The notes beneath the pieces are model-generated. The model did not search any database. It was not told the DNA's origin and worked only from the letters and a program-made list of their open reading frames with translations. A stretch of DNA of 64,000 nucleotides from NCBI GenBank assembly GCA_016716465.1, contig JADJWH010000001.1, positions 685,414-749,413 on the forward strand, written 5' to 3'. The stretch is from Gammaproteobacteria bacterium (GTDB taxonomy: Bacteria > Pseudomonadota > Gammaproteobacteria > SZUA-140). The position numbers and the translations under genes were made by a program. Shown here piece after piece: positions 1 to 23,727 of the stretch (position 1 is the first letter of the stretch; each line of letters begins with the position of its first letter).

Positions 1-591
<591 letters not shown>

Positions 592-1035: not shown

Positions 1036-1944
1036 ATGACGTGCAAGCATGGCGAAATCGTGGATGGGGAAGATGTTCTGCGCCCGGAAGGCGGCGCGGT
1101 AAACAGCGTGGCGCTGGATGTGGCCGCTGATGGCTGGGACGCGGCCCTGAGGTTGGTCTTCCGACGCGATGGCGCGCGCACGGTGCTCGCGCGCCGGTCT
1201 TCCTGCGGGCCGCTGCAGGTTCAGCGTCCGTTCTATCCCGGGGATGGCGTCTGCCACGTCTATCTGCTGCACCCGCCGGGAGGCGTGGTCGGCGGCGACC
1301 GGCTGGAGATCCGCGCTGAACTCGACAACGGAGCGCAGGTGCTGCTGACCACGCCGGCCGCAGGCAAGTTCTACCGCAGCGGAGGACGCATGGCGGCGCA
1401 GCTTCAGCACTTCACGGTTGCGGAAGGCGCCGCGCTCGAGTGGCTGCCGCAGGAGACCATCGTGTTCGATGGCGCGCGCGCACGCGGCACGACACGGGTT
1501 GAACTCGCTCACGGGGCGAGCTTCCTCGGCTGGGAGATCGTCTGTCTCGGGCGGCCGGCGGGAGGCGAGCGGTTCACGAATGGAGTGTTCATACAGGGCA
1601 TGGAGGTGTATCGCCAGGGACGGCCCTTATTGCATGAGTGCAGCCGCTTCGACGGTGGCGGCGCCATCCTCGATGCGCCGTGGGGATTGAACGGTTGCCC
1701 GGTCAGCGGCACGCTGGTCTGCACTGGGAGAGACGAGGCCGATCTTGCCGTGGTGCGCGAGTCCTTGGGCGAGGACGGATGCGACGAGATGACCGGGGCC
1801 ACGCTGCTGGAGGATGTGCTGCTGGTGCGTTTTCTCGGTACGCAGGCCGAACGTGCGCGCGAGCGTTTCCTGCGGGTATGGGAGGCGTTGCGGCCCAGGA
1901 CATTCGGCAGGCCGGCATTGCGTCCGAGGATCTGGAATACATGA
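1036..1944 (+). CDS. ureD: Urease accessory protein UreD/UreH (start uncertain; in-frame GTGs at 1060/1105/1117 are possible)
   Basis: Motifs GWDAALRLVFRRDGARTVL...LQVQRPFYPGDGVCHVYLLHPPGGVVGGDRL are typical of UreD. The gene immediately precedes ureABC. Confidence 0.85.
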   Translation: MTCKHGEIVDGEDVLRPEGGAVNSVALDVAADGWDAALRLVFRRDGARTVLARRSSCGPLQVQRPFYPGDGVCHVYLLHPPGGVVGGDRLEIRAELDNGAQVLLTTPAAGKFYRSGGRMAAQLQHFTVAEGAALEWLPQETIVFDGARARGTTRVELAHGASFLGWEIVCLGRPAGGERFTNGVFIQGMEVYRQGRPLLHECSRFDGGGAILDAPWGLNGCPVSGTLVCTGRDEADLAVVRESLGEDGCDEMTGATLLEDVLLVRFLGTQAERARERFLRVWEALRPRTFGRPALRPRIWNT

Positions 1945-1955
1945 GGTTTCGCGAA

Positions 1956-2019
1956 GGGTAATGGGTAAACGGTAACAGGGCAGGGTGTCTGGAGTGGAAA
2001 GTCTCCATCACCCATCGCC
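1956..2019. repeat. Inverted heptamer-array hairpin (GGTAATG/GGTAAAC ... CATCACC/CATCGCC) between ureD and ureA
   Basis: Direct reading: tandem 7-mers are followed by their reverse complements. Confidence 0.35.
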
Positions 2020-2051
2020 AGACGTTCGTCAAACAGCCAGGAGAATGCGAA

Positions 2052-2354
2052 GTGGAGCTGACCCCACGCGAGAAAGACAAGCTGCTGATCTTCACCGCCG
2101 GGCTGCTGGCCGAGCGGCGCAAGGCCCGCGGCCTCAAGCTGAACTATCCCGAGGCGATCGCCTATATCTCGGCGGCTATCCTCGAGGGCGCGCGTGATGG
2201 TTGCAGTGTGGCGGAACTGATGAGCTACGGCGCCACGCTGCTGACGCGCGCGGATGTGATGGACGGGATCGCCGAGATGATCCCGGAGGTTCAGGTCGAG
2301 GCGACCTTCCCCGATGGCACGAAGCTCGTCACCGTGCATAACCCGATCGTCTGA
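2052..2354 (+). CDS. ureA: Urease gamma subunit
   Basis: [43 protein letters not shown] start with an AGGAGA Shine-Dalgarno sequence 8 nt upstream. Confidence 0.95.
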
Positions 2355-2363
2355 AGAACCCGA

Positions 2364-2424
2364 GGATGGTGATGTGAGGCAAGGTTCCGGGATTTCCATC
2401 ACCCATCACTCATTCCCTATCACC
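2364..2424. repeat. Inverted heptamer-array hairpin (GGTGATG family) in the ureA-ureB spacer
   Basis: ggatggtgatgtgagg ... ccatcacccatcactcattccctatcacc. Confidence 0.45.
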
Positions 2425-2455
2425 CCTTGTCATACCGGCTAACGAGGAGACCAGA

Positions 2456-2761
2456 ATGATTCCCGGCGAAATCAGCACCGCGGACGGCGAAATCGAACTC
2501 AACGCCGGGCGCGATACCGTGACACTCAGCATCGCGAACTCCGGTGACCGGCCGATCCAGGTCGGCTCGCATTACCATTTCTACGAGACCAACGCGGCGC
2601 TGGCCTTCGACCGCGAGCAGGCGCGCGGCTTCCGCCTCAATATCCCGGCCGGCACCGCGGTGCGCTTCGAGCCGGGCCAGTCGCGCACGGTCGAACTGGT
2701 GCGCTACGCGGGCGCCGGGCGCGTCTACGGATTCAACGCAAAGATCATGGGGAAGCTCTGA
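2456..2761 (+). CDS. ureB: Urease beta subunit
   Basis: [46 protein letters not shown]. Confidence 0.95.
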
Positions 2762-2762
2762 C

Positions 2763-4466
2763 GTGACTACGATACTGCGGCGCGCGTACGCGGAGATGTA
2801 CGGGCCCACGGTCGGCGACCGTGTCCGGCTGGGGGATACCGAGCTCTGGCTCGAGGTCGAGCAGGACCGCACGGTCTACGGCGAGGAGGTCAAGTTCGGC
2901 GGCGGCAAGGTCATTCGCGACGGCATGGGCCAGAGCCAGGCCAGCGCGAAACAGGTGGTCGATTGCGTCATCACCAACGCGCTGATCGTGGACCACTGGG
3001 GCATCGTCAAGGCGGATATCGGCCTCAAGGACGGGCGCATCGCGGGCATTGGCAAGGCGGGCAACCCCGATGTCCAGCCCGGGATCGATATCGTCATCGG
3101 TCCCGGCACCGAGGTCATCGCCGGCGAGGGCCTGATCGCGACCGCCGGCGGCATCGATGCCCACATCCACTTCATCTGCCCGCAACAGGTGGAGGACGCG
3201 CTGATGTCCGGCGTCACCACCATGATCGGTGGCGGCACCGGACCGGCGGCCGGCACCAACGCCACCACCTGCACGCCGGGGCCGTGGAATATCGCCCGGA
3301 TGCTGCAGGCCGCGGATGTGCTGCCGATGAACCTCGGTTTTCTCGGCAAGGGCAACGCAAGCCTGCCGCAAGCCCTGGAAGAGCAGGTCGCCGCCGGGGC
3401 GATGGGTCTGAAACTGCATGAGGACTGGGGCACGACGCCCGCCGCGATCGACAACTGCCTGGAGGTGGCGGAAAAGTACGACGTGCAGGTCGCCATCCAC
3501 ACCGATACTTTGAACGAGTCGGGTTTCGTCGAGGATACGCTCGCCGCCTTCAAGGGGCGCACCATTCATACCTATCACACCGAAGGCGCCGGCGGTGGCC
3601 ACGCGCCGGACATCATCAAGGCCTGCGGTGAGGCCAATGTGCTGCCGTCGTCCACCAATCCGACGCGCCCCTATACGGTGAACACGGTCGACGAGCACCT
3701 CGACATGCTGATGGTATGCCATCACCTCGATCCGGGCATTCCGGAGGATGTCGCCTTCGCCGAGTCGCGCATCCGGCGCGAGACCATCGCCGCGGAAGAC
3801 ATCCTGCACGACCTCGGCGCCTTCTCGATGATCAGTTCGGATTCGCAGGCCATGGGCCGCGTCGGCGAGGTGATCACGCGCACCTGGCAGACGGCGCACA
3901 AGATGAAGGTCCAGCGCGGCGCGCTCGCGGGCGATCCCGCGCGCCACGATAATGGACGCATCAAACGCTACGTCGCCAAATACACCATCAATCCGGCGAT
4001 CGCCCACGGCGTCGCCGCCGATGTCGGCTCGATCGAGACCGGAAAGCTCGCCGACATCGTGCTGTGGCGCCCGGCCTTCTTCGGCGCCAAACCGTCGCTG
4101 ATCCTCAAGGGCGGCCTGATCGCCGCCGCGCCTATGGGCGACCCCAATGCCTCAATCCCGACGCCGCAACCGGTGCACTATCGACCCATGTTCGCCGCCC
4201 TCGGCGGGGCCTGCGCCGCGACCAGCGTGACTTTCGTGTCGCAGGCCGCGCAGCAGTCGGCGGTCGGCAGTCGCCTGGGCCTCAGGAAGCGCACGGTGCC
4301 GGTGTCCGGGACCCGCAATATCGGCAAGGCCGATATGATCCACAACGATTACCGGCCGCGGATGGAAGTCGATGCGCAGACCTACCAGGTGCGTGCCGAC
4401 GGTGAGTTGCTGGTATGCGATCCGATGAGCGTGCTGCCACTGGCGCAGCGGTATTTTCTGTTTTGA
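2763..4466 (+). CDS. ureC: Urease alpha subunit (GTG start)
   Basis: [29 protein letters not shown]...[13 protein letters not shown]...MVCHHLD. The long upstream frame from 2544 overlaps ureB; GTG 2763 directly follows the ureB stop. Confidence 0.95.
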
Positions 4467-4577
4467 AGATGTGAGGAGTGAGGTGTTCAAGAATAAACGC
4501 TTGCCTTTCGAATCCGTCAATGGGTCTCGCCGATTATTAGGACGTATGTTTCCTTTGCTCCTCACTCCGCACATCTC
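4465..4577. repeat. Inverted heptamer arrays (GTGAGGA/GTGAGGT ... CCTCACTCC) bracketing the ureC-ureE spacer
   Basis: gaagatgtgaggagtgaggtg ... gctcctcactccgcacatctc. Confidence 0.45.
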
Positions 4578-4585
4578 GCCGAACG

Positions 4586-5800
4586 ATGTTGAAACTGACC
4601 GCAATCGTTCAATCCACTGAGGCCCCTGCCGCCATGCTGACGCTGAGCTTCGACCAGCGCCAGCGCAGCCGTCTGCGCGTGACGCTGGACGACGGGCGCG
4701 AGGCCGCGTTGCTGCTCGAGCGCGGCGCCGTACTGCGCGGGGGGTGCTGTCTGCGTTCGGACGACGGGGTCATCGTCCGGGTCATTGCCGCACCGGAGCC
4801 CGTGTCCACGGTCCCGTGTCCGGACCCGTACCTGCTGGCGCGTGCCTGCTACCACCTCGGCAACCGCCACATCCCGCTGCAGATCGGTACCGGCTGGGTG
4901 CGGTATCAGCAGGACCACGTGCTGGACGACCTTGTGCACGGCCTCGGCCTGCGGCCGGTGGCGGAGTCCGCGCCCTTCGAGCCGGAGGCCGGGGCCTATG
5001 GCCATCATGCCCCTGAGACGGGTGGCGGCACGGAACCCTCGCTTGCCCCCGAAGGGCGCGTCAGACCGGAGGAACACGCGGCGCTGCACGAATCCGCCCA
5101 CGCATTCGGTCCGGCGTTGCTGGCGCTGCTGCGCCTGACGAGTTCGTCCCTGCCGGTGGGTTCCTTTGCCTATTCACAGGGCATGGAATACGCCGTGGAA
5201 CACGGCTGGATCAGCGACGAGGCGAGTGCGCGCGCCTGGATCGCGGGCCTGTTGCGGCACAGCCAGGCCCTCCAGGACATGCCGCTGTTGCTGCGCCTGT
5301 GCCGGGCCTGGGAGTCGGATGATGCCGCAGAGGTACAGAGGTGGAATGCGCGCCTGCTGGCCGCGCGCGAATCGCGCGAACTTCGCGCCGAGGAACTCAA
5401 TGTCGGCACGGCCCTGGCGCGCCTGCTCGCCGATCTCGGCGTGGCCAGGGCGGGCATGACGCCGTCGGAACAAGTCCCGAAGACGACAGACGGGATGCCG
5501 CCCTTGGGATATCTCGCGATGTTCGCCCTGGCCTGTGTCGAATGGAAAATTCCGCCGCGGGATGCGGTCTGCGGATACCTGTGGTCCTGGTGCCAGAACC
5601 AGGTTACCGCCGCGATCAAGCTGGTGCCGCTGGGCCAGACCGCGGGTCAGCGCATCCTGCAGACCCTGATCGAGTCGATCCCGGCCGTGGCCGATCAGGC
5701 CTTCGCGCTGGAAGACGAGGATATCGGTTTCACCGCCCCCGGTCTGGCGCTCGCAAGCGCCCGGCACGAGGGGCAGTACACACGGCTGTTTCTGTCTTAG
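4586..5800 (+). CDS. ureEF: UreE-UreF read as one continuous 404-aa ORF: a UreE domain with a His-rich linker, then a UreF domain
   Basis: N-terminus: MLKLTAIVQST...RSRLRVTLDDGREAALLLERG...HIPLQIG (UreE). C-terminus: LLALLRLTSSSLPVGSFAYSQGMEYAVEHGWI...VPLGQTAGQRIL (UreF). No stop codon lies between them in this frame. An internal TTG at 5117 could alternatively start ureF. Confidence 0.75.
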   Translation: MLKLTAIVQSTEAPAAMLTLSFDQRQRSRLRVTLDDGREAALLLERGAVLRGGCCLRSDDGVIVRVIAAPEPVSTVPCPDPYLLARACYHLGNRHIPLQIGTGWVRYQQDHVLDDLVHGLGLRPVAESAPFEPEAGAYGHHAPETGGGTEPSLAPEGRVRPEEHAALHESAHAFGPALLALLRLTSSSLPVGSFAYSQGMEYAVEHGWISDEASARAWIAGLLRHSQALQDMPLLLRLCRAWESDDAAEVQRWNARLLAARESRELRAEELNVGTALARLLADLGVARAGMTPSEQVPKTTDGMPPLGYLAMFALACVEWKIPPRDAVCGYLWSWCQNQVTAAIKLVPLGQTAGQRILQTLIESIPAVADQAFALEDEDIGFTAPGLALASARHEGQYTRLFLS

Positions 5801-5810
5801 AACCGGATGC

Positions 5811-5836
5811 GGGGACAGATTTATAAATCTGTCCCC
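5811..5836. repeat. 25-bp palindromic REP-like element GGGGACAGATTT-N-AAATCTGTCCCC
   Basis: ggggacagatttataaatctgtcccc, in the ureF-ureG spacer. Confidence 0.8.
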
Positions 5837-5875
5837 ATTTACTGAGTCCTTAGTCCTCTCTTTAACGAGGTAATT

Positions 5876-6490
5876 ATGTCCAAACAAACCCTACGTGTCG
5901 GCGTCGGCGGTCCGGTCGGTTCGGGCAAGACCGCCCTGGTGGACGCCCTGTGCAAACGCATGCGGGAGCGCTACAACATCGCCGTGGTGACCAACGACAT
6001 CTACACCCAGGAGGATGCGCAATTCCTCGTGCGCAGCGCGGCGCTGGCGCCGGAGCGCATCATCGGCGTGGAGACCGGCGGCTGTCCCCATACGGCGATC
6101 CGCGAGGACGCCTCCATCAATCTGGTGGCGGTGGACAAGCTGTGCCAGCGTTTTCCGGATCTCGACCTGGTGCTGGTCGAGAGCGGCGGCGACAATCTGA
6201 GCGCGACCTTCAGCCCCGAGCTGTCCGATCTGACCATTTACGTGATCGATGTCGCCGCCGGCGACAAGATCCCGCGCAAGGGCGGACCCGGCATCATGAA
6301 ATCCGACCTGCTGGTGATCAACAAGATCGATCTCGCCCCGTACGTCGGCGCCTCGCTCGAGGTGATGGAGCGCGACGCGCGCAAGATGCGCGGCGCCCGG
6401 CCGTTCGTCTTCACCAACATGAAGACGGGGCACGGCCTCGATATTGTCGAGAACTTCATCCGCGAGGCGGGGCTGCTGGATGTCGCGTGA
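5876..6490 (+). CDS. ureG: Urease accessory GTPase UreG
   Basis: [20 protein letters not shown]...ESGGDNL...[12 protein letters not shown]. Confidence 0.95.
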
Positions 6491-6683: not shown

Positions 6684-8996
6684 ATGCGGATGCCCGCGGC
6701 ACCCGTACCGACGCAATATCCCGTCCTCCGCCAACTCAAACGCCCCGCGCTGATCCTGGCGGGGTTGCTGATCATATATGCGCTCGCGGGATTTATCCTC
6801 CTGCCCGCAATCGCGCGCTCGCAGGCCGTGGATATCCTCAAGGAGCGTTACCGTCTCGATCTGGAGATCGGCAAGCTTCGCTTCAACCCGTTCACCTTTT
6901 CCGCGCGTCTCGAAGGCGTGAGCCTGAGCGATCCGGGCGGCGAGCGGCTGCTGGCGTTCGCGGCCTTTGGCGCGGATTTCGAGCTGCGCTCGCTGATCGA
7001 TCGGGCCCTGGTCTTCAAGTCGGTCACCTTGAGCCGGCCCTATGTGCACATTCATCTGCGTGAGGACGGGACGGTGAACCTGGCGCGGGCCTTCGCGTCA
7101 CCGCCGGGCGAGACTGCCGATGACGGACCCGCTTCGGCGCCCCCGGCACTGATCATCGGGGACATCGCGCTGAACGGTGGAGACCTGCACTTCACGGACA
7201 ATTCTCAGGGCCGTGATTTCGATCAGCACTTCACGCCGCTCGACCTGCACGTACAGCGCTTCTCGACGCGGCCGGAGGATCGCTCCGATCTCGTCGGCCT
7301 GAACATCAGTATCGGTGAGAGCGGGCGGCTAACGGTCTCGGGCGATCTGTCGGCCATCCCGACCCGTTTCGATATTCAACTCGCTGCACGCGGCATCCCG
7401 CTGGCCATCTTCCAGCCCTATCTTGAGGATCGCCTGCCGGCACGTATCAGTGACGGGTCGCTCGACTTCGATCTCTCGCTCGCGCAGGGGGAGCCGGGAC
7501 AGACCTCGCGACTGAAGCTGAGCGGCAAGGCCGCCATTCGCGGGCTCGCGGTCAAGCTCAAGGAGCGCGACGATGTGGCGCTGGCCTGGGAAGAGGTGGC
7601 GGCGAACGGCATGACGCTGGATCTGAGCCCCGATCGTCTCGCCATCGGCGAGATCGCCATCCGCGGGCTCGATACCTCGTTCAAGATCTACGCCGACGGC
7701 CGCACGAACGTCAGCGAGATGGCGCGCCAGGCGCGCGGGGAGTCGCCGGAATCCGCGGCGATGGCGCCGGAGGAACCGGCAGCGGCGGGTACGGATTCGA
7801 CGACGTCCGGCTTTCCATACGCAATCGACCGCGTCGTCGTCGCCGGTTCGCACCTGATGTTCAGCGACACACAGATCCAGCCGAACGTGCGGATACGCAT
7901 CGAGGATCTTGCCGGCGAGATACGCGGCATCGCCTCCGCTCCCGAAGCGCAAACGACCATCGCGCTCACCGGCCGCGTCGGCGAATATGGGAAGGCGAAG
8001 ATCGACGGCGCGGCGCGACTCGCGGCGCCCAGGCAGGACCTGAAGGCCAGGGTCACGTTTGATAACGTCGAGCTGACCTCGTTCTCGCCCTACGCGGGCA
8101 AGTTCGCCGGTTACACCATCGACAAGGGCAAGCTGTTCCTCGATCTGGACTACACCCTGGCCGGCAGCCGCATCCGGGGCGAGAATCACGCCGTGTTCGA
8201 TCAGTTCGAACTCGGCGACAGGGTCGACAGCGCGGATGCCCTCAAGCTGCCCATCAAGTTCGCGCTGTCGCTGCTGCGCGACCGCGAAGGCCGCATCGAC
8301 ATCGATCTGCCGGTGGAAGGCGATGTCGACGCGCCCGGTTTCAGGCTGGGTCCGCTGGTCGTCAAGGCGCTGGTCAATCTGGTCACGCGTATCGTCACCG
8401 CGCCTTTCGATTTCATCGCCGGCATGTTCGTTGGCGGGCCGGAGATGGAATACGCCGTATTCGCGCCGGGCGACGGCGCGCTGCCCGGCGCGGAGCGCGA
8501 AAAGATCCTGCCCCTGTCGCGCGCGCTTGCCGAACGGCCGCGCCTCGTGGTCGAGGTCCAGGGCTGGGCGGATCCCGGCGCCGATGCCGTCGCCCTGCGG
8601 CAGGGCAAGTTCGATGCCTTGCTGGCCGCCGCAGGCCCGCCCACGGACGCCGCGCTGGTCACCGCGTACGACGGTTTTTTCGGCGCCGGCGCCGTGGCCG
8701 CGTTGCGCACCGAACTTGCGGCCGGAGCCCGGTCCGATCCGGCGGCGGAGCCTGCCGGAGAGATGCCCGCCGATCCCGAGGCAGCGTTCCGGGCCGAGTT
8801 GAGCAATCGTCTGCTCGCCGCCCAGCCGGTGACCGACGAGGAACTGGCGGCGCTCGCCTATGCCCGCGGCGAACAGGTGATGGGCCTGCTCGTACAGGAC
8901 GGCGGCGTGGAGGCGGAGCGCGTCTTCGTGCGCCGGGGCGAGATTGCCCGCGACGGCGAGGGCACGAGGGCGAAACTGATCCTCGATGCGCGCTAG
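6684..8996 (+). CDS. Large membrane-anchored protein, DUF748/AsmA-like (function unknown)
   Basis: 770-aa ORF. N-terminal TM helix LILAGLLIIYALAGFILLPAI, then a long beta-rich, low-complexity body. The family assignment is from memory only. Confidence 0.55.
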   Translation: MRMPAAPVPTQYPVLRQLKRPALILAGLLIIYALAGFILLPAIARSQAVDILKERYRLDLEIGKLRFNPFTFSARLEGVSLSDPGGERLLAFAAFGADFELRSLIDRALVFKSVTLSRPYVHIHLREDGTVNLARAFASPPGETADDGPASAPPALIIGDIALNGGDLHFTDNSQGRDFDQHFTPLDLHVQRFSTRPEDRSDLVGLNISIGESGRLTVSGDLSAIPTRFDIQLAARGIPLAIFQPYLEDRLPARISDGSLDFDLSLAQGEPGQTSRLKLSGKAAIRGLAVKLKERDDVALAWEEVAANGMTLDLSPDRLAIGEIAIRGLDTSFKIYADGRTNVSEMARQARGESPESAAMAPEEPAAAGTDSTTSGFPYAIDRVVVAGSHLMFSDTQIQPNVRIRIEDLAGEIRGIASAPEAQTTIALTGRVGEYGKAKIDGAARLAAPRQDLKARVTFDNVELTSFSPYAGKFAGYTIDKGKLFLDLDYTLAGSRIRGENHAVFDQFELGDRVDSADALKLPIKFALSLLRDREGRIDIDLPVEGDVDAPGFRLGPLVVKALVNLVTRIVTAPFDFIAGMFVGGPEMEYAVFAPGDGALPGAEREKILPLSRALAERPRLVVEVQGWADPGADAVALRQGKFDALLAAAGPPTDAALVTAYDGFFGAGAVAALRTELAAGARSDPAAEPAGEMPADPEAAFRAELSNRLLAAQPVTDEELAALAYARGEQVMGLLVQDGGVEAERVFVRRGEIARDGEGTRAKLILDAR

Positions 8997-9010
8997 GCGC
9001 ATGACCATTG

Positions 9011-9035
9011 GGGGACAGATTTGAAATCTGTCCCC
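9011..9035. repeat. 25-bp palindromic REP-like element
   Basis: ggggacagatttgaaatctgtcccc. Confidence 0.8.
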
Positions 9036-9050
9036 GTACACTACATCTCC

Positions 9051-10262
9051 CTACACCGCGCGCCGCGCGGCTTGCGAGCCCCAGATGAAAGACGCGTGCC
9101 GCCGCCACGCATCGGCGAGCGCGTGGCGGATATCGTCCGGTCCCAGGGCGGCGAGCCGGGCCAGGCGTTCGTTGAGGGCTGTGACACGGTCCAGGTAGGC
9201 GATCTCGTGCGCGATGCGTTCCATTACGCACTCGGGGTCGTCTTCCTCCAGCGTCCAGCGCGCCTGCAGTTGAGCGAGATGGCGAACCAGCTCCTCGCGC
9301 CCCGGTCCATGCTGGATCAGCGCTTCCATGACGGATTCGACCGCCGTGGCGCAGCGTCCTTCCATGCCGGGTTCGCAGCGCACGCGGATCCACCAGAGAC
9401 CGCAATCGCTATAGAGCTCCAGACGGGACTCGACTGCATATGCGAGCCCGAGCCGTTCGCGCAACTCGTATTGCAGACGTGCGGAGAGCGGCGCCCCGGC
9501 GGCGATCTGTTCCGCGAGCAGCAATGCCGGATAGGCCGGTTCGCCCAAGGTCGGTACCGGCATCAGCCAGAGCAGGTCGGAACCGTCGCCGCCCGCGGGT
9601 CCGTGCAGGGAGCAGGGCGTGAATTCCGCTGGCGGCGCATCGCGCTGATCCCCGGCGGGCAGTTGCTCCAGCGCACGACAGGCCTCCACCAGTTCGTCAT
9701 GACGGACATCGCCCGCCGCCACGACCCAGATCGCGGGACCGCGCAGACGGGACGCGCAATATTCCTGCACTGCCGCGGCATTGGCCCGGGGTCTGTTCCC
9801 GCTCCCCAGGATCGGCCGGGCGAGCGGGTGTCCATCCCAGACGCGCCGGAGCGCGAAGGCCTCCTGCTCGTCCCACAGGGACTGCGAGGCCATCCGGCGC
9901 TCATGCCATACCGCGGGCAGTTCGGCGGCAAGTTCCTTCGCCCCGAGGCGCGGTTCGAGCAGCAGGGCGGCGAACAGGCCTGCCAGCGCGCCCACGCGAT
10001 CACCGGTCACCAGGCCGTGAAAGGCGGTAAGTTCACGCATGGTGCGGGCATTGACATGACCGCCCAGCACCGCGAATTGGTCGGTGTAACGACCGCCGCC
10101 GTGGAACAGCAGATGCTCGAGCAGGTGCGCGTAGCCATCCTGGCCGGGGGTTTCGTGGCGTGAACCGTTGCGCAACCAGAGCCCGAGTGACGCGCTGCGC
10201 CGGCCGGGCAGCGGGCGGCTCAGGACGCGGACACCATTCGCGAGTGTGGTACAGGCCGTCAT
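9051..10262 (-). CDS. M16-family (pitrilysin/PqqF-like) zinc metallopeptidase, last gene of the riboswitch-controlled ABC operon
   Basis: Inverted zinc motif HLLEHLLFHG (HxxEH), then VLGGHVNARTMRELTAF, matching the M16 N-terminal signature. The start overlaps the ATPase stop (ATGA, 10259-10262). Confidence 0.75.
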   Translation of the reverse strand: MTACTTLANGVRVLSRPLPGRRSASLGLWLRNGSRHETPGQDGYAHLLEHLLFHGGGRYTDQFAVLGGHVNARTMRELTAFHGLVTGDRVGALAGLFAALLLEPRLGAKELAAELPAVWHERRMASQSLWDEQEAFALRRVWDGHPLARPILGSGNRPRANAAAVQEYCASRLRGPAIWVVAAGDVRHDELVEACRALEQLPAGDQRDAPPAEFTPCSLHGPAGGDGSDLLWLMPVPTLGEPAYPALLLAEQIAAGAPLSARLQYELRERLGLAYAVESRLELYSDCGLWWIRVRCEPGMEGRCATAVESVMEALIQHGPGREELVRHLAQLQARWTLEEDDPECVMERIAHEIAYLDRVTALNERLARLAALGPDDIRHALADAWRRHASFIWGSQAARRAV

Positions 10263-11070
10263 GCCGGTTCCGCCGTGGGCTTCGGAGAGACGCCGGTGTA
10301 ATAATCCTCCCGCGCCCGCAGCAGGCGCAGCGCGTCGTCCCTCTCGACGTCGCGGCGCGTGAGCGGGATATCAAAGGTGATCGTGGCGCCGAAGCGTTCC
10401 GGCGCCTGCGCATCGCGCCGTACCTTGTCGAATACCAGCAGGCGCGTGCCGAGGGCGAAGGCTTCCTTCAGGTCATGGGTGATCATGAATACCGTCATGT
10501 CGGTCGCGCGCCACAGGCCGAGCAGCAGGCGGTGCATATCGGCCCGGATCCCCGGGTCGAGGGCGCCGAACGGTTCGTCCAGCAGCAGGATCTTCGGACG
10601 CTTGATCAGGGCCTGCGCGATGGCGAGACGTTGCTGCATGCCTCCGGACAGCGCGCTTGGATACTTGGCGGCCGCCCCCTCCAGCCCCACCGACTGCAGG
10701 GTCTCGTCGACACGGGTGAGCGCCTCGCGCCGCGCCGCGCCGAACAGCCGGCCGCTCAGGGGAGAGGCGCCGAGCTCGAGGCCGAGCAGGACGTTGTCGC
10801 GCACCGTCAGGTGCGGAAAGACCGAATAGCGCTGGAACACGATGCCGCGTTCCGGTCCCGGCTCGGCGCGCAGCGGCGCGCCGTCGAGCTCGATTGCGCC
10901 GCGGCTCGGGGATTCCTGGCCGAGCAGCATGCGCAGGAAGGTGGTCTTGCCGCACCCCGAGGCGCCGACGATGGTGCAGAATTCGTGTTCCTGCACGGTC
11001 AGATTGATGCGCTCGAGGACGACCTGCGCCTCGTACTGCTTCCAGACATTGCGGATGACGAGCCGGCTCA
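10259..11070 (-). CDS. ABC transporter ATP-binding protein (NitT/TauT family)
   Basis: MSRLVIRNVWKQY...GASGCGKTTFLRML...LSGGMQQRLAIAQAL...LLLDEPFGALD. The probable start is the ATG reverse-complemented at 11068-11070; the longer ORF reaching 11275 is a GC-rich extension. Confidence 0.85.
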
Positions 11071-11892
11071 TGCGCGCGGCATCTCCGCGTGATACCAGGG
11101 GAACAGTCGCCGCGACAGCCGGCGCAGGAGCAGGTCGAAGGCATAGGCCAGCAGGGTGATCCAGGCGACGTAGGGCAGGATGAGGTCCATGGCCAGATAG
11201 CGCCGCACCAGAAAGATGCGATAGCCGAGTCCGTCGGTCGCCGCGATCGCCTCGGCCGCGATCAGGAACAGCCACGCCGCGCCCAGCGAGAGCCGGACCG
11301 CGTCGAGCAGGCGCGGCAGGATCTGCGGCAGCACCACGCGCAGGATGACCAGCCAGGTCGAGGCGCCCAGGGTCTGGGCCTTGATCAGCTGTTCCGGCGG
11401 GATCTCACCCGTGCGCAGCGCGAGGTCACGGATCAGGAAGGGCGTGATGCCGATGACGATCAGCACGATCTTCGAAACCTCGCCCAGCCCGAACACGATG
11501 AACAGGATGGGCAGGATCGCGAGCGGCGGAATCAGCGAGAGCACCGCCACCAGCGGAGCGAAGGCCGCGCGCAGGCGCGGGATGACGCCGATCAGCACGC
11601 CCGCCGCCAGCCCCAGCAGGGCGCTGATCAGGATGCCCGAGCCCAGACGCAGCAGACTGCTCGCGGTGTCCTTCCACAGCAGGATATCGCCGCTGCGCGC
11701 GTCCGGCTCGAAGGCGACCTGCTGGATGGCCGCGCCGAAGGCGGCGAAGGAGGGCAGCAGCTTGTCATTCGGATTCGACGCGAGACGCAGGTCCGAGCCG
11801 ACGATGTAGGCCGCCACGATCAGCAGGAAGGGCAGCGCGCCCAGGGCGAGCGCGCCGGACCTTCCGGGATGCTGATTGAGCAGGCGGGGCAT
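11068..11892 (-). CDS. ABC transporter permease (NitT/TauT family)
   Basis: Polytopic membrane protein containing an EAA-like loop (AAEAIAATDGLGYRIF). Confidence 0.85.
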   Translation of the reverse strand: MPRLLNQHPGRSGALALGALPFLLIVAAYIVGSDLRLASNPNDKLLPSFAAFGAAIQQVAFEPDARSGDILLWKDTASSLLRLGSGILISALLGLAAGVLIGVIPRLRAAFAPLVAVLSLIPPLAILPILFIVFGLGEVSKIVLIVIGITPFLIRDLALRTGEIPPEQLIKAQTLGASTWLVILRVVLPQILPRLLDAVRLSLGAAWLFLIAAEAIAATDGLGYRIFLVRRYLAMDLILPYVAWITLLAYAFDLLLRRLSRRLFPWYHAEMPRA

Positions 11893-11895
11893 GGA

Positions 11896-12975
11896 CTAGA
11901 GATTGCCGTCCGCCGCCATCTTCATGTAGGCCGAGGTGAAGCGCAGCTTGACGTTGCCCTTGTCGCCGAGCAACTTGTCACCGGGGAAGCTGATCCCGAC
12001 CGCATCGACGCTGCGCGCACCCTCGCCGAGGATCCCGTGGTCGAAGGAAAATGTGCGCACATGGTCCATGGTCTGGATCAGATCCGCACTGTCGGTGAAC
12101 TTCACCGCGTCGGCGGCGGCATAGAACATCTTGGTGGTCTTGAGCTGGCTGTCATAGCCGGCGAGATCGGTGCCGGAGGCCTGGCCCATGTGGGTCCGCG
12201 CCGCGGCGCCCGCCGCATCCTTGGCGGACATCAACGCCATCGTCTCGTACCAGGCGCCGGTGAGCGCCTTGCCGAGGGCCGGATTGGCGCTGAGCGTCGC
12301 GCTGTTCACCACCATCATATCGATGATCTCGCCGGGGATCTGGCTGGAATCGAAGACGGGTTTGGCGCCCGGCATGGCCGTGACTTCGCTCAGCTGCGGG
12401 TTCCAGGTGACCAGGGCGGTGACATCCGGCGAGGAAAAGGCGGCAACGATATCGGCGTCGGAGGTATTGACTACGGTGATGTCCTTCTCCTTCAGACTGA
12501 CCGTATCGAGCGCGCGCGCGAGCAGATAATGCGAGACCGAGAGCTCGACCAGATTGACCTTCCTGCCCTTGATGTCCTTCAGTGCGGCGGCGTTCTTCAG
12601 GATGATGCCGTCGTTGCCGTTGGAGAAGTCGCCGACGATCAGGGCGGTGGAATCGACGCCGCCGGCGGCCGGGATGGTCAGGGCGTCCATGTTGGTCATC
12701 ACGCAGCCGTCGAAGGCGCCGGCGGTGTACTGATTGATGGATTCAATGTAGTCGTTGATCTGCACCACCTCGATATCGATGCCGTACTTGTCGGCCCATT
12801 TCTTCACGATGCCCTGGCTGGCGGCGTATTCCCACGGCATCCACCCGACGTAGATGCTCCATGCGACGCGGAACTTGGTCTTCTCGGCGGCGAGCGCGCC
12901 GGGGGCGGCGCCGAACATCAGGAGGGCGAAGGCGAGCAGCAATGCGGATACGGCGGAAACTCTGGACGTTTTCAT
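11896..12975 (-). CDS. ABC transporter periplasmic substrate-binding protein (NitT/TauT family); candidate guanidine-binding protein
   Basis: Signal peptide MKTSRVSAVSALLLAFALLMFGAAPGALA. AAGGGGA Shine-Dalgarno sequence before the ATG (reverse complement of 12973-12975). It sits downstream of a guanidine-I riboswitch. Confidence 0.85.
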   Translation of the reverse strand: MKTSRVSAVSALLLAFALLMFGAAPGALAAEKTKFRVAWSIYVGWMPWEYAASQGIVKKWADKYGIDIEVVQINDYIESINQYTAGAFDGCVMTNMDALTIPAAGGVDSTALIVGDFSNGNDGIILKNAAALKDIKGRKVNLVELSVSHYLLARALDTVSLKEKDITVVNTSDADIVAAFSSPDVTALVTWNPQLSEVTAMPGAKPVFDSSQIPGEIIDMMVVNSATLSANPALGKALTGAWYETMALMSAKDAAGAAARTHMGQASGTDLAGYDSQLKTTKMFYAAADAVKFTDSADLIQTMDHVRTFSFDHGILGEGARSVDAVGISFPGDKLLGDKGNVKLRFTSAYMKMAADGNL

Positions 12976-13137
12976 ATTTTCCCCTTGAGCTGTCAGTTCT
13001 GTTGCGTCAGACCGAGTGCCGGGGAGGTATGCGCCGAGACGGACCGGAGAAGCCGGCAGGCACCGTCAGGACATCACACATCCGCGGCCTGTGCCTCCCG
13101 GGCTTTTATCCCGCCGTGTATCCGAGCTCTCCGAACC

Positions 13138-13166
13138 GGGGACAGATTTATTTATCCGATCTGTCC
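13138..13166. repeat. Degenerate REP-like palindrome inside riboswitch 2 (P2-region hairpin)
   Basis: ggggacagatttatttatccgatctgtcc. Confidence 0.5.
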
Positions 13167-13216
13167 GCGTGTCGTGCCGCCCGGACTGCATCCCTTGGAC
13201 CAGCCATCCCTGGGAA

Positions 13217-13241
13217 CGGGGACAGATTTAAAATCTGTCCC
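13217..13241. repeat. 25-bp REP-like palindrome forming the P1a-position hairpin of riboswitch 2
   Basis: ggggacagatttaaaatctgtcccc, directly downstream of CUAGGGUUCCGG on the minus strand. Confidence 0.8.
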
Positions 13242-13600
13242 CGGTACAAGAGACCGGAACCCTAGATGCTCTGAACAGGGTTTAGCAATTAGCATGCCGC
13301 GCCCATGGGCAAGGCCTGTGGCGCGAGCTAACAGATTGACTGTTCTTGCATTCGCCTGTGCGATCTTCACCGTGGCTCGCGCATGACTGAGCCCGCGCGA
13401 CAGTCCGTCGCGAATAATTGCCCCATCATGGTGAGGCGACACTTCGAAATGCGCGGAAATGGTGCCTGATAAGCGAGTCAGGGCCGGGCGCACGGCGCGT
13501 GTTCCGCGGGAATCCGTGCCGGCATTCCATCATCGAACTGTTGGCTATTCCATCACTTAGCCGATGGCACGCATTGTCCCGGTTCATGCCTGGTGCAGGA

Positions 13601-13616
13601 TGGTACGCCGCTTGCA
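13601..13616 (+). promoter_or_regulatory. Sigma-54-type promoter candidate (TGGTAC-N5-TTGCA) driving the gdmH leader
   Basis: GG-N10-GC spacing is exact and the -12 TTGCA is perfect, with one mismatch at -24. The predicted transcription start lies ~40 nt before the aptamer. Confidence 0.35.
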
Positions 13617-13666
13617 ATCTCACAGGGCAAGCGGCCATGGCCGCGATAATCAGCCTATCAGGATGA

Positions 13667-13793
13667 CTAGGGTTCCGGTTCCGCGTGGTACGCGGGGACA
13701 GATGTAAATCCGTCCCCGATGGCGATGCGGGGCGACTGGTCCGAGAGTCATCGGCCTCCGGCGCGGAGGTTACACGGCGGGATAAAAGCCCGG
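13667..13793 (+). promoter_or_regulatory. Guanidine-I (ykkC-type) riboswitch aptamer in the gdmH leader
   Basis: CUAGGGUUCCGG ... GGUCCGAGAG ... ACACGGCGGGAUAAAAGCCCGGGAGAG. All three hallmark ykkC blocks are present in the correct order. Confidence 0.8.
13694..13717. repeat. REP-like palindrome (one arm mismatch) embedded in the P1a-position hairpin of riboswitch 1
   Basis: ggggacagatgtaaatccgtcccc. Confidence 0.6.
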
Positions 13794-13817
13794 GAGAGCA
13801 GGCCTCTCTCGACTTTT
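13794..13817 (+). terminator. Riboswitch expression-platform intrinsic terminator
   Basis: gagagcaggcctctctc followed by gacTTTTGTT. The 5' half overlaps the aptamer 3' end (CCCGGGAGAG), the classic ligand-ON arrangement. Confidence 0.5.
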
Positions 13818-13850
13818 GTTCAACGGTAACCGTTCAGACCAGGAGGACAC

Positions 13851-15044
13851 ATGGCCGATTTTTCCCGATACCGTTCCCGTACGCTGAAACCTTCGCTGCG
13901 CAATCCGGCGCACCGGCACCACCCCTCGTTCGACAAGACCCAGCTGCATGGCTGGAAGGCCGCGCACAAAGAGGCCGAACTGTCACATAGCGGCTGGGAC
14001 GCGGAGGAAAGGCGCTGTCTGGAGCTCGGACTGCCGGGTGCGGACAGCATCCAGGACAAATCGATCCCCACCTTCGCCCGCGGCGAGCTGCCGCACTATG
14101 CGGGCATCAACACCTTCATGAAGGCCCCGTACTGCGAGGACATCAAGGATGTCGGCAAGTACGATGCGGCGATCATCGGCGTGCCGTTCGATGGCGGCAC
14201 CACCTACCGGCCCGGCACGCGCTTCGGGCCACAGGGCATCCGGCGCATCTCGGCGCTGTATACGCCCTATAACTACGAACTCGGCGTCGACCTGCGCGAG
14301 CAGATGACCCTGTGCGATACCGGGGACGTGTTCACGATCCCGGCCAATATCGAGAAGACCTTCGACCAGATCAGTCGCGCGGTCGGTTACGTGTTCGCGA
14401 GCGGGGCGCTGCCGATCATCCTGGGCGGCGACCACTCGATCGGATTCGCCACGGTACGCGGCATCGCGCAGCAGACCGACAAAAAGATCGGCATCATCCA
14501 CTTCGACCGCCACGCCGACATCCAGGAAAAGGATCTCGACGAGCGCATGCACACGACGCCGTGGTTCCATGCCACCAATCTGCCCAACGTGCCGGCGTCC
14601 AATCTGGTGCAGATCGGCATCGGCGGCTGGCAGGTGCCACGCCAGGCGGTGAAGGAGGCGCGCAAGCGCGACACCACGATCATCACGATGAACGACGTGG
14701 AGAAGCTCGGCCTCGACAAGGTGGCGGAGATCGCGCTGGAAACCGCCTGGCACGATGCGGACGCGGTCTATCTGAGCTTCGACATCGACAGCGTGGACGC
14801 CGGCTTCGTGCCGGGCACCGGCTGGCCGGAGCCGGGCGGTTTCCTGCCGCGCGAGATCCTCTATCTATTGGGCATGGTCGCGCGCGAGGGCATCTGCGGC
14901 ATGGAGGTCGTGGAGGTCTCGCCACCCTACGACGTCTCTGACATCACCTCGCTGATGGCGATGCGGGGCATCGTCGACGTGCTCGGCACCCTGGTCGCCC
15001 ACGGCAAGATGGGCGCGCACCGGCACATCATTCGTGGCAGGTGA
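13851..15044 (+). CDS. gdmH: Arginase/agmatinase-family ureohydrolase with a long N-terminal extension; candidate Ni-dependent guanidine hydrolase (GdmH-like)
   Basis: Ureohydrolase motifs GGDHSI, DAHAD-like HFDRHADI, SFDIDSVD. 397 aa. AGGAGG Shine-Dalgarno sequence 5 nt before ATG 13851. Directly downstream of a guanidine-I riboswitch. Confidence 0.75.
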   Translation: MADFSRYRSRTLKPSLRNPAHRHHPSFDKTQLHGWKAAHKEAELSHSGWDAEERRCLELGLPGADSIQDKSIPTFARGELPHYAGINTFMKAPYCEDIKDVGKYDAAIIGVPFDGGTTYRPGTRFGPQGIRRISALYTPYNYELGVDLREQMTLCDTGDVFTIPANIEKTFDQISRAVGYVFASGALPIILGGDHSIGFATVRGIAQQTDKKIGIIHFDRHADIQEKDLDERMHTTPWFHATNLPNVPASNLVQIGIGGWQVPRQAVKEARKRDTTIITMNDVEKLGLDKVAEIALETAWHDADAVYLSFDIDSVDAGFVPGTGWPEPGGFLPREILYLLGMVAREGICGMEVVEVSPPYDVSDITSLMAMRGIVDVLGTLVAHGKMGAHRHIIRGR

Positions 15045-15093: not shown

Positions 15094-15121
15094 GGGGACA
15101 GATTTAATCAAATCTGTCCCC
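15094..15121. repeat. REP-like palindrome (28-bp variant)
   Basis: ggggacagatttaatcaaatctgtcccc, 50 bp past the gdmH stop. Confidence 0.8.
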
Positions 15122-15551: not shown

Positions 15552-16226
15552 ATGCATACGAAAAAAATCAGTCGTTTGATGCTCGCGGCCAGCCTGGCGG
15601 CCCCCGCCATGGTGTTCATGCCGATGAGCGCGCAGGCCGGCGCGACCGCCAATATCGGCGTTGCCAATATGTATCTGTGGCGCGGCATGGATGTGAGTGC
15701 CTCCGATGCACAGGTGAGCGGCACCCTGCAGTACAACGCCGACAGCGGTTTCTACGTCGGCGGCTGGGCCTCCAGCACCTGGGCCGGCGCAGGATATGAG
15801 CTCGACCTGTATGGTGGTTATGGCGGCAGCGCGGGCGATTTCAAGTACGACATCTCGTTTTGGGAGTACCTGTATCCAGAGGCCGGCTTTGTACCGGGTG
15901 ACGATGTCGGTCTCGGCGACACGGATGCCTCCGACTTGGTGCTGAGCGTCGCCTACGACATGTTCTCGGCCGCCGCCTACGTCAACACGGACAGTGATCT
16001 TCCCGATGCGGTCTATTACACCCTTGGTGTTTCCTCGGGCAAATTCGGCGGTACGTTCGGTTTCTGGACCGGCGATGATGATGCCCTGGACTACAGCCAT
16101 ATCACGCTGAGCTACAACCCGATCGAGTCGCTCACCTTCAAGCTGAGCATGGCTTCCTCGGGCGATACGGAAGTGGAAGAGGATCCCCTGGTCCAGGTTT
16201 CCTATACCTGGGGTTTTGATCTGTAA
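15552..16226 (+). CDS. Small outer-membrane beta-barrel protein (porin-like), possibly a urea/guanidine channel
   Basis: Signal peptide MLAASLAAPAMVFMPMSAQA. Alternating G/Y/S/T-rich strands. C-terminal YTWGFDL. Confidence 0.55.
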   Translation: MHTKKISRLMLAASLAAPAMVFMPMSAQAGATANIGVANMYLWRGMDVSASDAQVSGTLQYNADSGFYVGGWASSTWAGAGYELDLYGGYGGSAGDFKYDISFWEYLYPEAGFVPGDDVGLGDTDASDLVLSVAYDMFSAAAYVNTDSDLPDAVYYTLGVSSGKFGGTFGFWTGDDDALDYSHITLSYNPIESLTFKLSMASSGDTEVEEDPLVQVSYTWGFDL

Positions 16227-16338: not shown

Positions 16339-17637
16339 ATGAAAAATCACAAATTGCTGAGTTGGAGGAATCTGTTTGGCTCGCTGGCTGCCGTTGCCCT
16401 GACCGCGGGGACCCTGACCGCGCAGGCCGCCGACACGATCAAGGTCGGTGTACTGCATTCGCTGTCCGGCACCATGGCGATCAGCGAGACGACGCTGAAG
16501 GACACGGTCCTGATGCTGGTCGATGAGCAGAACAAGAAGGGCGGCCTGCTCGGCAAGAAGCTCGAGGCGGTGGTGGTCGACCCGGCGTCGAACTGGCCGC
16601 TGTTCGCCGAGAAGGCGCGCGAGCTGATCCAGAAGGACAAGGTCGCGGTGGTGTTCGGCTGCTGGACCTCGGTGTCGCGCAAGTCCGTGCTGCCGGTATT
16701 CGAGGAACTGAACGGACTGCTGTTCTATCCGGTGCAGTATGAAGGCGAGGAGTCCTCCAAGAACGTGTTCTACACCGGCGCGGCGCCCAACCAGCAGGCG
16801 ATCCCGGCGGTGGACTACCTGATGAAGGACATCGGCGTGAAACGCTGGGTGCTGGCCGGCACCGACTATGTGTACCCGCGCACCACCAACAAGATCCTCG
16901 AGGCCTATCTGAAGGCGAAGGGCGTCAAGTCCGAGGACATCATGATCAACTACACGCCGTTCGGCCATTCGGACTGGCAGAGCATCGTGTCCGACATCAA
17001 GAAGTTCGGGTCCGAGGGCAAGAAGACGGCGGTGGTCTCGACCATCAACGGCGACGCCAACGTGCCGTTCTACAAGGAACTCGGCAACCAGGGTATCTCG
17101 GCCGAGGACATCCCGGTCGTGGCATTCTCGGTCGGCGAGGAAGAGCTGTCCGGTCTGGATACCGCCCCGCTGGTCGGGCACCTGGCCGCCTGGAACTACT
17201 TCATGAGCATCGATACGCCGGAAAACGCGGCCTTCATCAAGAAATGGCATGACTTCATCAAGAACCCGAAGCGCGTCACCAACGACCCGATGGAGGCGCA
17301 CGTGATCGGTTTCAACATGTGGGTGAAGGCGGTCGAGAAGGCCGGCACGACGGATACCGACGCGGTTGAGAAGGCGATCATCGGTATCGAGACGCCGAAC
17401 ATGACCGGAGGCATGGCGAAGATGCTGCCCAATCACCACATCACCAAGCCGGTCTTCATCGGTGAGATCCAGGATGACGGCCAGTTCGAGGTGGTCTGGA
17501 AGACCGACGGCCTGGTGCCTGGAGACGCCTGGTCCGACTTCCTGCCCGGCAGCAAGGATATCGAGGCCGACTGGGTGACGCTGAAGTGCGGTAACTACAA
17601 CACCAAGACCAAGAAGTGCTCCGGACAGAATTACTGA
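16339..17637 (+). CDS. urtA: Urea ABC transporter substrate-binding protein
   Basis: 432 aa, Liv-type binding-protein fold: IKVGVLHSLSGTMAISE...VVFGCWTSVSRKSVLPVFEE. Confidence 0.85.
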   Translation: MKNHKLLSWRNLFGSLAAVALTAGTLTAQAADTIKVGVLHSLSGTMAISETTLKDTVLMLVDEQNKKGGLLGKKLEAVVVDPASNWPLFAEKARELIQKDKVAVVFGCWTSVSRKSVLPVFEELNGLLFYPVQYEGEESSKNVFYTGAAPNQQAIPAVDYLMKDIGVKRWVLAGTDYVYPRTTNKILEAYLKAKGVKSEDIMINYTPFGHSDWQSIVSDIKKFGSEGKKTAVVSTINGDANVPFYKELGNQGISAEDIPVVAFSVGEEELSGLDTAPLVGHLAAWNYFMSIDTPENAAFIKKWHDFIKNPKRVTNDPMEAHVIGFNMWVKAVEKAGTTDTDAVEKAIIGIETPNMTGGMAKMLPNHHITKPVFIGEIQDDGQFEVVWKTDGLVPGDAWSDFLPGSKDIEADWVTLKCGNYNTKTKKCSGQNY

Positions 17638-23701: not shown

Positions 23702-23727
23702 GGGGACAGATTTCAAAATCTGTCCCC
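23702..23727. repeat. 25-bp REP-like palindrome
   Basis: ggggacagatttcaaaatctgtcccc. Confidence 0.8.

Follow-up and report, generated by a model that had tools for sequence, protein, structure and literature searches.

The 875-nucleotide (nt) spacer between two divergent operons of an uncultured gammaproteobacterium carries two guanidine-I riboswitch aptamers back to back, one leading into gdmH, a predicted guanidine hydrolase gene, and the other into a predicted guanidine ATP-binding cassette (ABC) importer operon. Each aptamer is directly preceded by a sigma-54-type promoter. The stretch of DNA that we analysed, hereafter the window, comprises 64,000 nt (64 kb) of a Gammaproteobacteria bacterium (assembly GCA_016716465.1, contig JADJWH010000001.1, positions 685,414 to 749,413 of the forward strand), and all coordinates without a locus label refer to it. 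We read the spacer as the control region of two divergent guanidine-use units, each with its own promoter and aptamer, at a probability of roughly 85%; the aptamers are expected to bind guanidine and the enzyme to hydrolyse it.

Two guanidine-I aptamers lie back to back in one spacer

An Rfam cmscan of the whole window at gathering thresholds (a score of 63 for RF00442) returns three matches in total, two of which are Guanidine-I (RF00442):

13656-13798, plus strand: guanidine-I aptamer, plus copy, gdmH leader (RF00442, 84.9 bits, E = 1e-13, model positions 1-107)
13276-13093, minus strand: guanidine-I aptamer, minus copy, importer-operon leader (RF00442, 70.6 bits, E = 1.6e-10, model positions 1-107)

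A preliminary description of this DNA, made from its letters without database searches, had read the hallmark blocks of the family on both strands of the spacer and proposed a covariance-model search. The two strands score 84.9 and 70.6 bits against the gathering score of 63, and every block is in place. On the plus strand, CUAGGGUUCCGG begins at 13667, GGUCCGAGAG spans 13738-13747 and ACACGG...GGGAG spans 13772-13796; on the minus strand, CUAGGG begins at 13265, GGUCCAAGGG occupies 13201-13192 and ACACGG...GGGAG occupies 13119-13095. By family, far beyond chance, both aptamers are genuine guanidine-I riboswitches, with guanidine as the predicted ligand.

We mapped the pocket bases through the numbering of the Dickeya dadantii aptamer structure, in which GGUCCGAGAG corresponds to G30-G39 (PMC5340920). 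In the Dickeya aptamer, G37, G67, G68 and G85 contact the ligand, G84 has a structural role and A38 is less conserved (PMC5340920). The residues that form the pocket and its tertiary contacts (G37, G67, G68, G84-C64, G85 and A75-A78) are present in both copies. Members of ykkC subtype 2, which recognise guanosine tetraphosphate (ppGpp), phosphoribosyl pyrophosphate (PRPP) and similar ligands, have a pyrimidine at each of the positions that correspond to G67 and A38 (PMC5340920). Both copies have G at position 67; at position 38 the plus copy has A and the minus copy G, and these purines exclude subtype 2 for either aptamer.

To place the locus among its relatives, reference genomes were scanned with GdmH, yielding at least 587 relatives in species-level genomes, of which the best 80 loci were kept (individual loci are cited by L-numbers). 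The closest relative among the loci is L001, a metagenome-assembled genome of an uncultured member of the Gammaproteobacteria whose GdmH is 95% identical. In most of the best 80 loci gdmH is paired with an ABC importer, and a guanidine-I riboswitch precedes most of these pairs. A single aptamer leading into gimA-gimB-gimC-gdmH on one strand is the layout of about 55 loci, most of them from Alphaproteobacteria. The divergent two-aptamer layout recurs in L001, L002, L007, L008 and L081; the two aptamers of L009 follow one another in series, and in L004 the second aptamer lies farther off. The plus-strand copies of the relatives resemble one another, as do the minus-strand copies, so the two aptamers are old paralogues rather than the product of a recent duplication.

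Sigma-54-type promoters precede both aptamers

A promoter scan found no sigma-70-like site in 12900-13900, which led us to search for sigma-54 motifs with a GG-N10-GC core (TGGCACG-N4-TTGCW; strict pattern GGYAYGNNNNTTGCW). Two such sites lie in the spacer:

13601-13616, plus strand: sigma-54-type -24/-12 promoter TGGTACGCCGCTTGCA of the gdmH transcript, predicted start near 13627
13299-13284, minus strand: sigma-54-type -24/-12 promoter CGGCATGCTAATTGCT of the importer transcript, predicted start near 13273, 2-3 nt before P1

In the 64 kb, the strict pattern has three matches where 0.20 would be expected, two of them directly upstream of the aptamers. The same association extends to the relatives: of 51 related aptamers, 21 have a strict match no more than 90 nt upstream, compared with a background of 0.002 per 90 nt. 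Sigma-54 motifs are conserved in L001, L002, L004, L007, L008 and L081; the gdmH-side motif is kept in L001, L002 and L081, and the importer-side motif keeps its position, -33 to -36 from CUAGGG, in all six loci. Across loci most motifs lie 33-38 nt before CUAGGG, a spacing with which transcription would begin at the foot of P1. Since sigma-54-type promoters directly precede the aptamers, the arrangement implies a predicted dual control by nitrogen limitation and guanidine. A literature search for a link between sigma-54 or NtrC and guanidine riboswitches found nothing relevant, which is weak evidence of absence.

Several other features of the spacer and its promoters were seen. Sequence islands kept in the window, L001 and L002 (for example TGCCCCATCATGG, CTAACAGATTGA and TTGCCCCATCATGGTG; 13328-13339 and 13419-13434) and a weak NtrC-like dyad, TGCGCGGAAATGGTGCC, at about 13459-13475 are candidate activator sites, located roughly in the middle of the interval that separates the divergent sigma-54 motifs. 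Between the predicted plus-strand start and P1, a perfect 14-nt palindrome, GCGGCCATGGCCGC (13631-13644, plus strand), might fold into a stem-loop at the 5' end of the transcript; L001 has this palindrome too, and in L002 it is deleted. The third strict motif of the window, TGGCACGGAAGTTGCT (36728-36743, minus strand), lies upstream of an open reading frame (ORF) at 35729-36679, and in L081 a further sigma-54 motif (2199-2214, minus strand) precedes the TorF-type porin gene that adjoins gdmH.

The plus copy is a predicted terminator switch before gdmH

Downstream of the plus aptamer lie its terminator and the gene that it would control:

13791-13821, plus strand: intrinsic terminator of the plus copy, CGGGAGAG-CAGGC-CUCUCUCG followed by ACUUUUGUUC (terminator scan, minimum free energy (MFE) fold and conservation in L001)
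13851-15044, plus strand: gdmH, predicted Ni-dependent guanidine hydrolase orthologue, 397 amino acids (aa) (PF00491), with an AGGAGG Shine-Dalgarno sequence at 13841-13846

The terminator-like hairpin itself occupies 13791-13811 and is followed by the tail ACUUUUGUU. Its 5' arm is the 3' strand of P3 (C82-G87), so a ligand-stabilised P3 and the terminator are mutually exclusive. The overlap of a terminator with the 3' end of the aptamer, already noticed from the letters, is thereby located in P3, and the plus copy is predicted to be a textbook terminator ON switch.

The AGGAGG sequence and the 397-aa ureohydrolase that had been described beyond this aptamer are both present, and the protein is closest to GdmH. 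It matches Synechocystis GdmH (7ESR/7OI1) with E = 1.6e-167, 560 bits and 68% identity, and the Nitrospira inopinata guanidinase (9FEK) with E = 1.4e-163 and 65% identity; the next-best characterised match is proclavaminate amidinohydrolase (E = 4.9e-50). Published guanidine-specificity residues are Thr105, His222, Trp313 and Glu344 in N. inopinata and Thr97 and Trp305 in Synechocystis. The counterparts of the four N. inopinata residues in the 397-aa protein are T118, H234, W325 and E355, and the metal motifs GGDHS, DRHAD and DIDSVD start at residues 192, 219 and 311. Identification as an agmatinase, guanidino-acid hydrolase or similar ureohydrolase would fit the NCBIfam result, in which agmatinase and formimidoylglutamase models alone match, all below their cut-offs, and the historical database annotation of this clade as 'agmatinase 2'. 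Such an assignment is hardly credible given 560 bits to GdmH against at most 174 bits to any other characterised ureohydrolase, the conserved Thr, His, Trp and Glu, and the position of the gene behind a guanidine-specific riboswitch. By sequence, then, the arginase-family protein is a GdmH orthologue, and guanidine is its predicted substrate.

The minus copy heads a predicted guanidine importer operon

On the other strand, the minus aptamer is followed by a leader and four genes:

12976-13092, minus strand: leader and expression platform of the minus copy, 117 nt, Shine-Dalgarno sequence AAGGGG, no U-tract
11896-12975, minus strand: gimA-type periplasmic binding protein, 359 aa (TIGR03427, 579.8 bits, cut-off 333.9; NMT1-like domains)
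11068-11892, minus strand: ABC permease, 274 aa (PF00528; TauC/NtrB-like matches below equivalog cut-offs)
10259-11071, minus strand: ABC ATPase, about 270 aa (PF00005; start taken from the ORF translation and the 271-aa L001 orthologue)
9051-10262, minus strand: M16B zinc peptidase, 403 aa, HLLEH motif intact (PF00675, PF05193; best PDB match 3HDI, E = 1e-28)

The gene content is that given by the preliminary description, a binding protein, permease, ATPase and M16 peptidase headed by the minus copy. The stop codon of the permease gene overlaps the start codon of the ATPase gene in an ATGA, and the ATPase and M16 genes overlap in the same way. By family, the first three products are a predicted guanidine ABC importer of the GimABC type.

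The minus leader can fold into a long alternative helix in which the whole P3 region pairs with about 13066-13041. U-tract terminators are uncommon in the related set, occurring in 7 of 46 aptamers. Relatives with a single aptamer have to induce gdmH through a leader of this type, and for that reason we consider ON the most likely polarity of the minus copy, though a Rho-dependent, translational or even OFF read-out may be conceived. One could therefore imagine switches of different logic at the two ends of the spacer, with gdmH ON and the importer under Rho-dependent or translational control, perhaps OFF at high intracellular guanidine so as to limit toxic uptake. Several features fit this idea: no U-tract lies beyond the alternative helix, the leader is 94% conserved relative to L001, and a CCUCCCCGG element, read from the sequence, can pair either with the 3' strand of P3 or with the AAGGGG Shine-Dalgarno sequence. 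Guanidine is also toxic above millimolar concentrations while GimA binds it at nanomolar affinity, and the divergent arrangement leaves the two operons uncoupled, in contrast to the single operon that is common among relatives. We nevertheless find a difference in logic rather unlikely, since the published guanidine-I switches that we compared (Synechocystis, comammox) are ON, a single aptamer in most relatives drives gimABC together with gdmH and hence must be ON, and the modelled exposure of the Shine-Dalgarno sequence does not clearly change in either direction.

An extension of the same thought, equally speculative, is that the pair is non-redundant and would act as a guanidine homeostat that scavenges at low nitrogen, degrades guanidine once it is present and throttles uptake on build-up, with the palindromic hairpins described below perhaps functional. 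If this were true, the importer switch, with its A38G pocket and no terminator, would have a different read-out, possibly of opposite polarity, under a shared sigma-54 input, and the hairpins in the aptamer loops could alter folding kinetics or transcript stability.

The homologues of the M16 peptidase form a distinct M16B subfamily (about 50 proteins above 170 bits). The gene is the fourth of the gimABC operon in the window, L001, L002 and L081. Elsewhere in the Gammaproteobacteria, members adjoin urease operons (L082, L084) and a porin-GlnK-Amt locus (L083), and on this basis the subfamily appears tied to nitrogen-scavenging loci generally and not to guanidine specifically. A role as a GdmH-specific maturation factor was considered and rejected, as the subfamily also lies beside urease and an Amt/GlnK locus without gdmH.

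The minus copy is conserved

The middle block of the minus copy, GGUCCAAGGG, differs from the consensus GGUCCGAGAG by G35A and A38G (Dickeya numbering). From this deviation the preliminary description had suggested that the minus copy might have altered specificity or be decaying. A degenerate aptamer, or one shifted to another ligand, would leave the importer operon outside guanidine control. Beyond the deviant block, such a reading can draw on the engineered A38G substitution in the Dickeya aptamer, which lowered guanidine affinity about 10-fold (PMC5340920), and on the two insertions and the lower score (70.6 bits) of the minus copy.

Comparison with relatives makes this improbable. Block variation was counted over 71 related aptamers, in which A occurs at position 35 in 8 and G at position 38 in 14, in gim and gdmH leaders alike, and the exact GGUCCAAGGG block recurs in L001 and L008. 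All ligand-contact bases (G37, G67, G68 and G85), G84 and the A-loop are intact in the minus copy, and its purines at positions 38 and 67 rule out ykkC subtype 2. Identity to L001 is 91% for the core of the minus aptamer, 93% for that of the plus aptamer and 94% for the minus-strand leader, against 69% for the spacer that separates the two aptamers. This contrast points to purifying selection and not decay. We conclude that the departure in the middle block is natural variation, and the suggestion of decay or altered specificity is not upheld. The GGUUCGGAGAG stretch further on, which had been counted as another deviant block, is the 3' strand of the P2 stem beside an inserted palindrome, and not a second copy of the middle block.

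A somewhat lower guanidine sensitivity of the minus copy is possible, because the engineered A38G weakened the Dickeya aptamer about 10-fold. In two-aptamer loci G38 appears in gim and gdmH leaders alike without a consistent pattern. We also considered A38G as systematic affinity tuning, and dropped the idea because it does not consistently track importer versus hydrolase leaders.

Palindromes occupy the terminal loops of both aptamers

Relative to the RF00442 model, the plus copy contains a 42-nt insertion in the P1b loop, and the minus copy has one of 35 nt at the same place and another of 49 nt in the loop of P2. All three hold short palindromes resembling repetitive extragenic palindromic (REP) elements, and further members are dispersed in the window (listed without strand):

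13694-13717: REP-like palindrome GGGGACAGATGTAAATCCGTCCCC in the P1b terminal loop of the plus aptamer, inside the 42-nt insertion
13218-13242: REP-like palindrome in the P1b loop of the minus aptamer, inside the 35-nt insertion
13138-13168: degenerate REP-like palindrome in the P2 loop of the minus aptamer, inside the 49-nt insertion
9011-9035: REP-like palindrome of the dispersed family at the 3' end of the importer operon
15094-15121: REP-like palindrome of the dispersed family just downstream of gdmH
5811-5836, 23702-23727, 26295-26319, 56686-56710 and 59930-59954: further family members, GGGGACAGATTT..AAATCTGTCCCC, 24-31 nt, intergenic, often just after genes
25022-25095 and 28998-29071: 74-nt intergenic relatives with the same termini and A/T-rich flanks, resembling miniature inverted-repeat transposable elements (MITEs)

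Counting GGGGACAGAT and its complement gives 30 half-sites in the window against 4.2 expected. The 64 kb contain 12 paired palindromes (24-31 nt, two of 74 nt), all of them between ORFs or inside the two leaders. The same three aptamer insertions are found in L001 and are absent from L002, L003, L004, L007, L008 and L081, where the loops are short; accordingly, the block-to-block distances of the window and L001 are the extremes among the 71 aptamers. In MFE folds P1, P1b and P2 are kept and the palindromes, the P2 one included, stack coaxially on top. The L001 copy of the minus P1b palindrome carries a compensatory G:C to C:G change in its stem. The insertions are copies of a dispersed mobile palindrome that are probably tolerated in terminal loops.

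With three insertions of about 25-45 nt in 330 nt of aptamer sequence, one or both aptamers might instead have been inactivated, leaving the riboswitches as relics and the sigma-54 promoters alone in control, and an insertion of about 160 nt did push the aptamer of L005 below the Rfam gathering score. We regard inactivation as very improbable. The insertions are confined to the terminal loops of P1b and P2, for which the structure paper names no tertiary contact (PMC5340920), and the MFE folds retain P1, P1b and P2 beneath the stacked palindromes. They are also older than the divergence of the window from L001, since which the cores have remained 91-93% identical, against 69% for the spacer.

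The P1b loop has received insertions in other lineages too: palindromic insertions of about 160 nt in L005 (4018-4267) and about 125 nt in L045 (3790-3999) occupy the same position. The L005 aptamer falls below the gathering score and was missed by the gathering scan because its P1b insertion lowers the score. A tblastn search with the Y1 transposase of L081 found no Y1/RAYT transposase in the 64-kb window. In L081 a Y1 (IS200/RAYT-type) transposase gene (404-1171, minus strand) adjoins the porin-gdmH module and is flanked, at 390-410 and 1170-1330, by palindromes (AAAGGGGACGCTACCCTTTT, GGGGAC...) whose first six stem bases are those of the window palindrome. A limited literature search found no report of REP-type elements inside riboswitch aptamers, which is weak evidence of absence.

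Urease and urea transport genes flank the module

Urease and urea-uptake genes lie on either side of the two units:

988-6490, plus strand: urease cluster with ureD, structural genes including ureC, a ureE-ureF ORF and ureG (Pfam UreD, Urease_alpha, UreE and UreF, CobW/UreG)
15552-16226: TorF-family porin gene (TIGR02001)
16339-17637, plus strand: urtA, urea ABC transporter binding protein (TIGR03407, 577.7 bits, cut-off 492.75)

The order after gdmH is palindrome, porin gene, urtA. As the preliminary description had proposed, the module thus stands beside urea transport and near urease, flanked by the urease cluster and urtA, and the family assignments bear out its reading as a route from guanidine through urea to ammonia, a route that is already published.

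Within the urease cluster, a 404-aa ORF (4586-5800, plus strand) combines UreE (N- and C-terminal domains) with UreF and has a 385-aa counterpart in L081 (14281-15224); ureE and ureF are separate in L082 and L084, and the ORF is possibly a lineage-specific UreE-UreF fusion. The remaining Rfam match of the window, 5_ureB_sRNA (RF02514, 111.9 bits, 2912-3198, minus strand), is antisense inside the urease alpha coding region and recurs in L004 (10704-10989, minus strand). The match is most likely due to conservation in the urease coding sequence from which the Helicobacter antisense-RNA model derives, and not to a real small RNA. In L004 (region 6989-12257) the riboswitch-controlled gdmH is followed directly, after a gap of about 690 nt and on its own strand, by a urease operon (ureD at 8876, ureC at 10551), and guanidine-dependent read-through into urease is a possibility there.

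A model of dual control

In the model that we favour, each transcript would start at its sigma-54-type promoter and then run through its own guanidine-I aptamer. Without guanidine, the 3' strand of P3 (C82-G87) of the plus copy would be held in the terminator at 13791-13811 and transcription would stop; with guanidine, P3 would form, the terminator would be blocked and gdmH would be transcribed. GdmH would then split guanidine into urea and ammonium, and the neighbouring urease would turn the urea into ammonia. The minus copy would control the translationally coupled four-gene operon for a high-affinity guanidine importer and the M16 peptidase. Expression would need two signals, sigma-54 activation (presumably under nitrogen limitation through an NtrC-type activator) and guanidine. 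The REP-like palindromes would lengthen the peripheral P1b and P2 helices without touching the binding core.

Several points weigh against this model. The minus copy carries A38G, the terminator scan of its leader found no terminator and no U-tract after the alternative helix, and the modelled accessibility of its Shine-Dalgarno sequence is 0.35 with the aptamer free and 0.36 with it locked. The roughly 25-45 extra nt in P1b and P2 may affect folding kinetics. For the nitrogen input, no sigma-54 activator gene or recognisable NtrC site was assigned, and the spacer offers conserved islands only. Finally, no HypA/HypB-type (GhaA/GhaB-like) Ni maturase was found beside gdmH among the scanned flanking ORFs, only ureG and ureE; the scanned ORFs contain ureG as their sole CobW/HypB/UreG-family match and yielded no HypA. 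Comammox genomes with guanidinase likewise have no dedicated Ni-loading genes (PMC11410670).

The guanidine-urea-ammonia system itself is already published (2022-2025). Modestly new are the separately riboswitched divergent importer, the sigma-54-type promoters, the palindromes in aptamer loops and the M16 peptidase. The locus extends the guanidinase route to uncultured Gammaproteobacteria, and the presence of GdmH relatives in at least 587 genomes, together with the pairing of importer and riboswitch, supports guanidine as a common environmental nitrogen source. The combination of sigma-54-type promoter and aptamer suggests dual control as a general proteobacterial design, parallel to NtcA plus riboswitch in cyanobacteria. 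Aptamers pushed below the Rfam threshold by palindromes in P1b and P2 are missed by riboswitch censuses, and the same loops are natural insertion-tolerant sites that would be useful in engineering. The divergent pair also provides a natural comparison of whether one aptamer class can drive two read-outs at one locus.

Comparison with known systems

Among the closest published parallels is Synechocystis sp. PCC 6803, where a validated guanidine-I riboswitch is described as controlling gdmH-ghaAB (Funck et al. 2022, as cited in PMC12186494; PMC12704784). Its GimA binds guanidine at about 97 nM (PMC12704784; PMC12186494), its gdmH and gimABC are also under the nitrogen regulator NtcA, and urease ends the pathway (PMC12186494; PMC12704784). 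The window shares with it a terminator-type guanidine-I riboswitch before GdmH, an adjacent NitT/TauT-type ABC importer, a nitrogen-status promoter and urease. The two differ in that gimABC of Synechocystis has an NtcA promoter only, whereas the importer of the window has its own riboswitch and is divergent, and in that the nitrogen input is NtcA in the one and a sigma-54-type promoter in the other. Genes for GhaA and GhaB (HypA/HypB-like) are present in Synechocystis and none is adjacent in the window, whose importer operon includes an M16 peptidase and whose host is an uncultured gammaproteobacterium.

The comammox bacterium Nitrospira inopinata likewise has a guanidine-I riboswitch and a GdmH-clade guanidinase with the same specificity residues and no dedicated Ni chaperone nearby (PMC11410670). 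Its urease is encoded elsewhere (PMC11410670), and the operon of its enzyme contains an ATP-independent APC permease, whereas the window has an ABC importer in a separate, divergent, riboswitch-controlled operon.

The palindromes resemble the REP/REPIN elements and small MITEs of Proteobacteria, being short, imperfect and intergenic (24-31 nt, about one per 5 kb) and having 74-nt relatives. They differ from REP/REPIN elements in that the 64-kb window has no Y1/RAYT gene and that three copies lie inside riboswitch aptamers.

Transporters of the TIGR03427 type behind guanidine-I riboswitches are standard in guanidine carboxylase loci (PMC12186494). In Pseudomonas, Klebsiella and Raoultella these loci place the same family of binding protein, permease and ATPase behind a guanidine-I riboswitch, and like the window they can have more than one guanidine riboswitch per locus (PMC12186494). 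The route itself separates the two systems: the carboxylase loci use an ATP-dependent carboxylase, CgdAB and allophanate hydrolase, whereas the window would use a hydrolase and urease.

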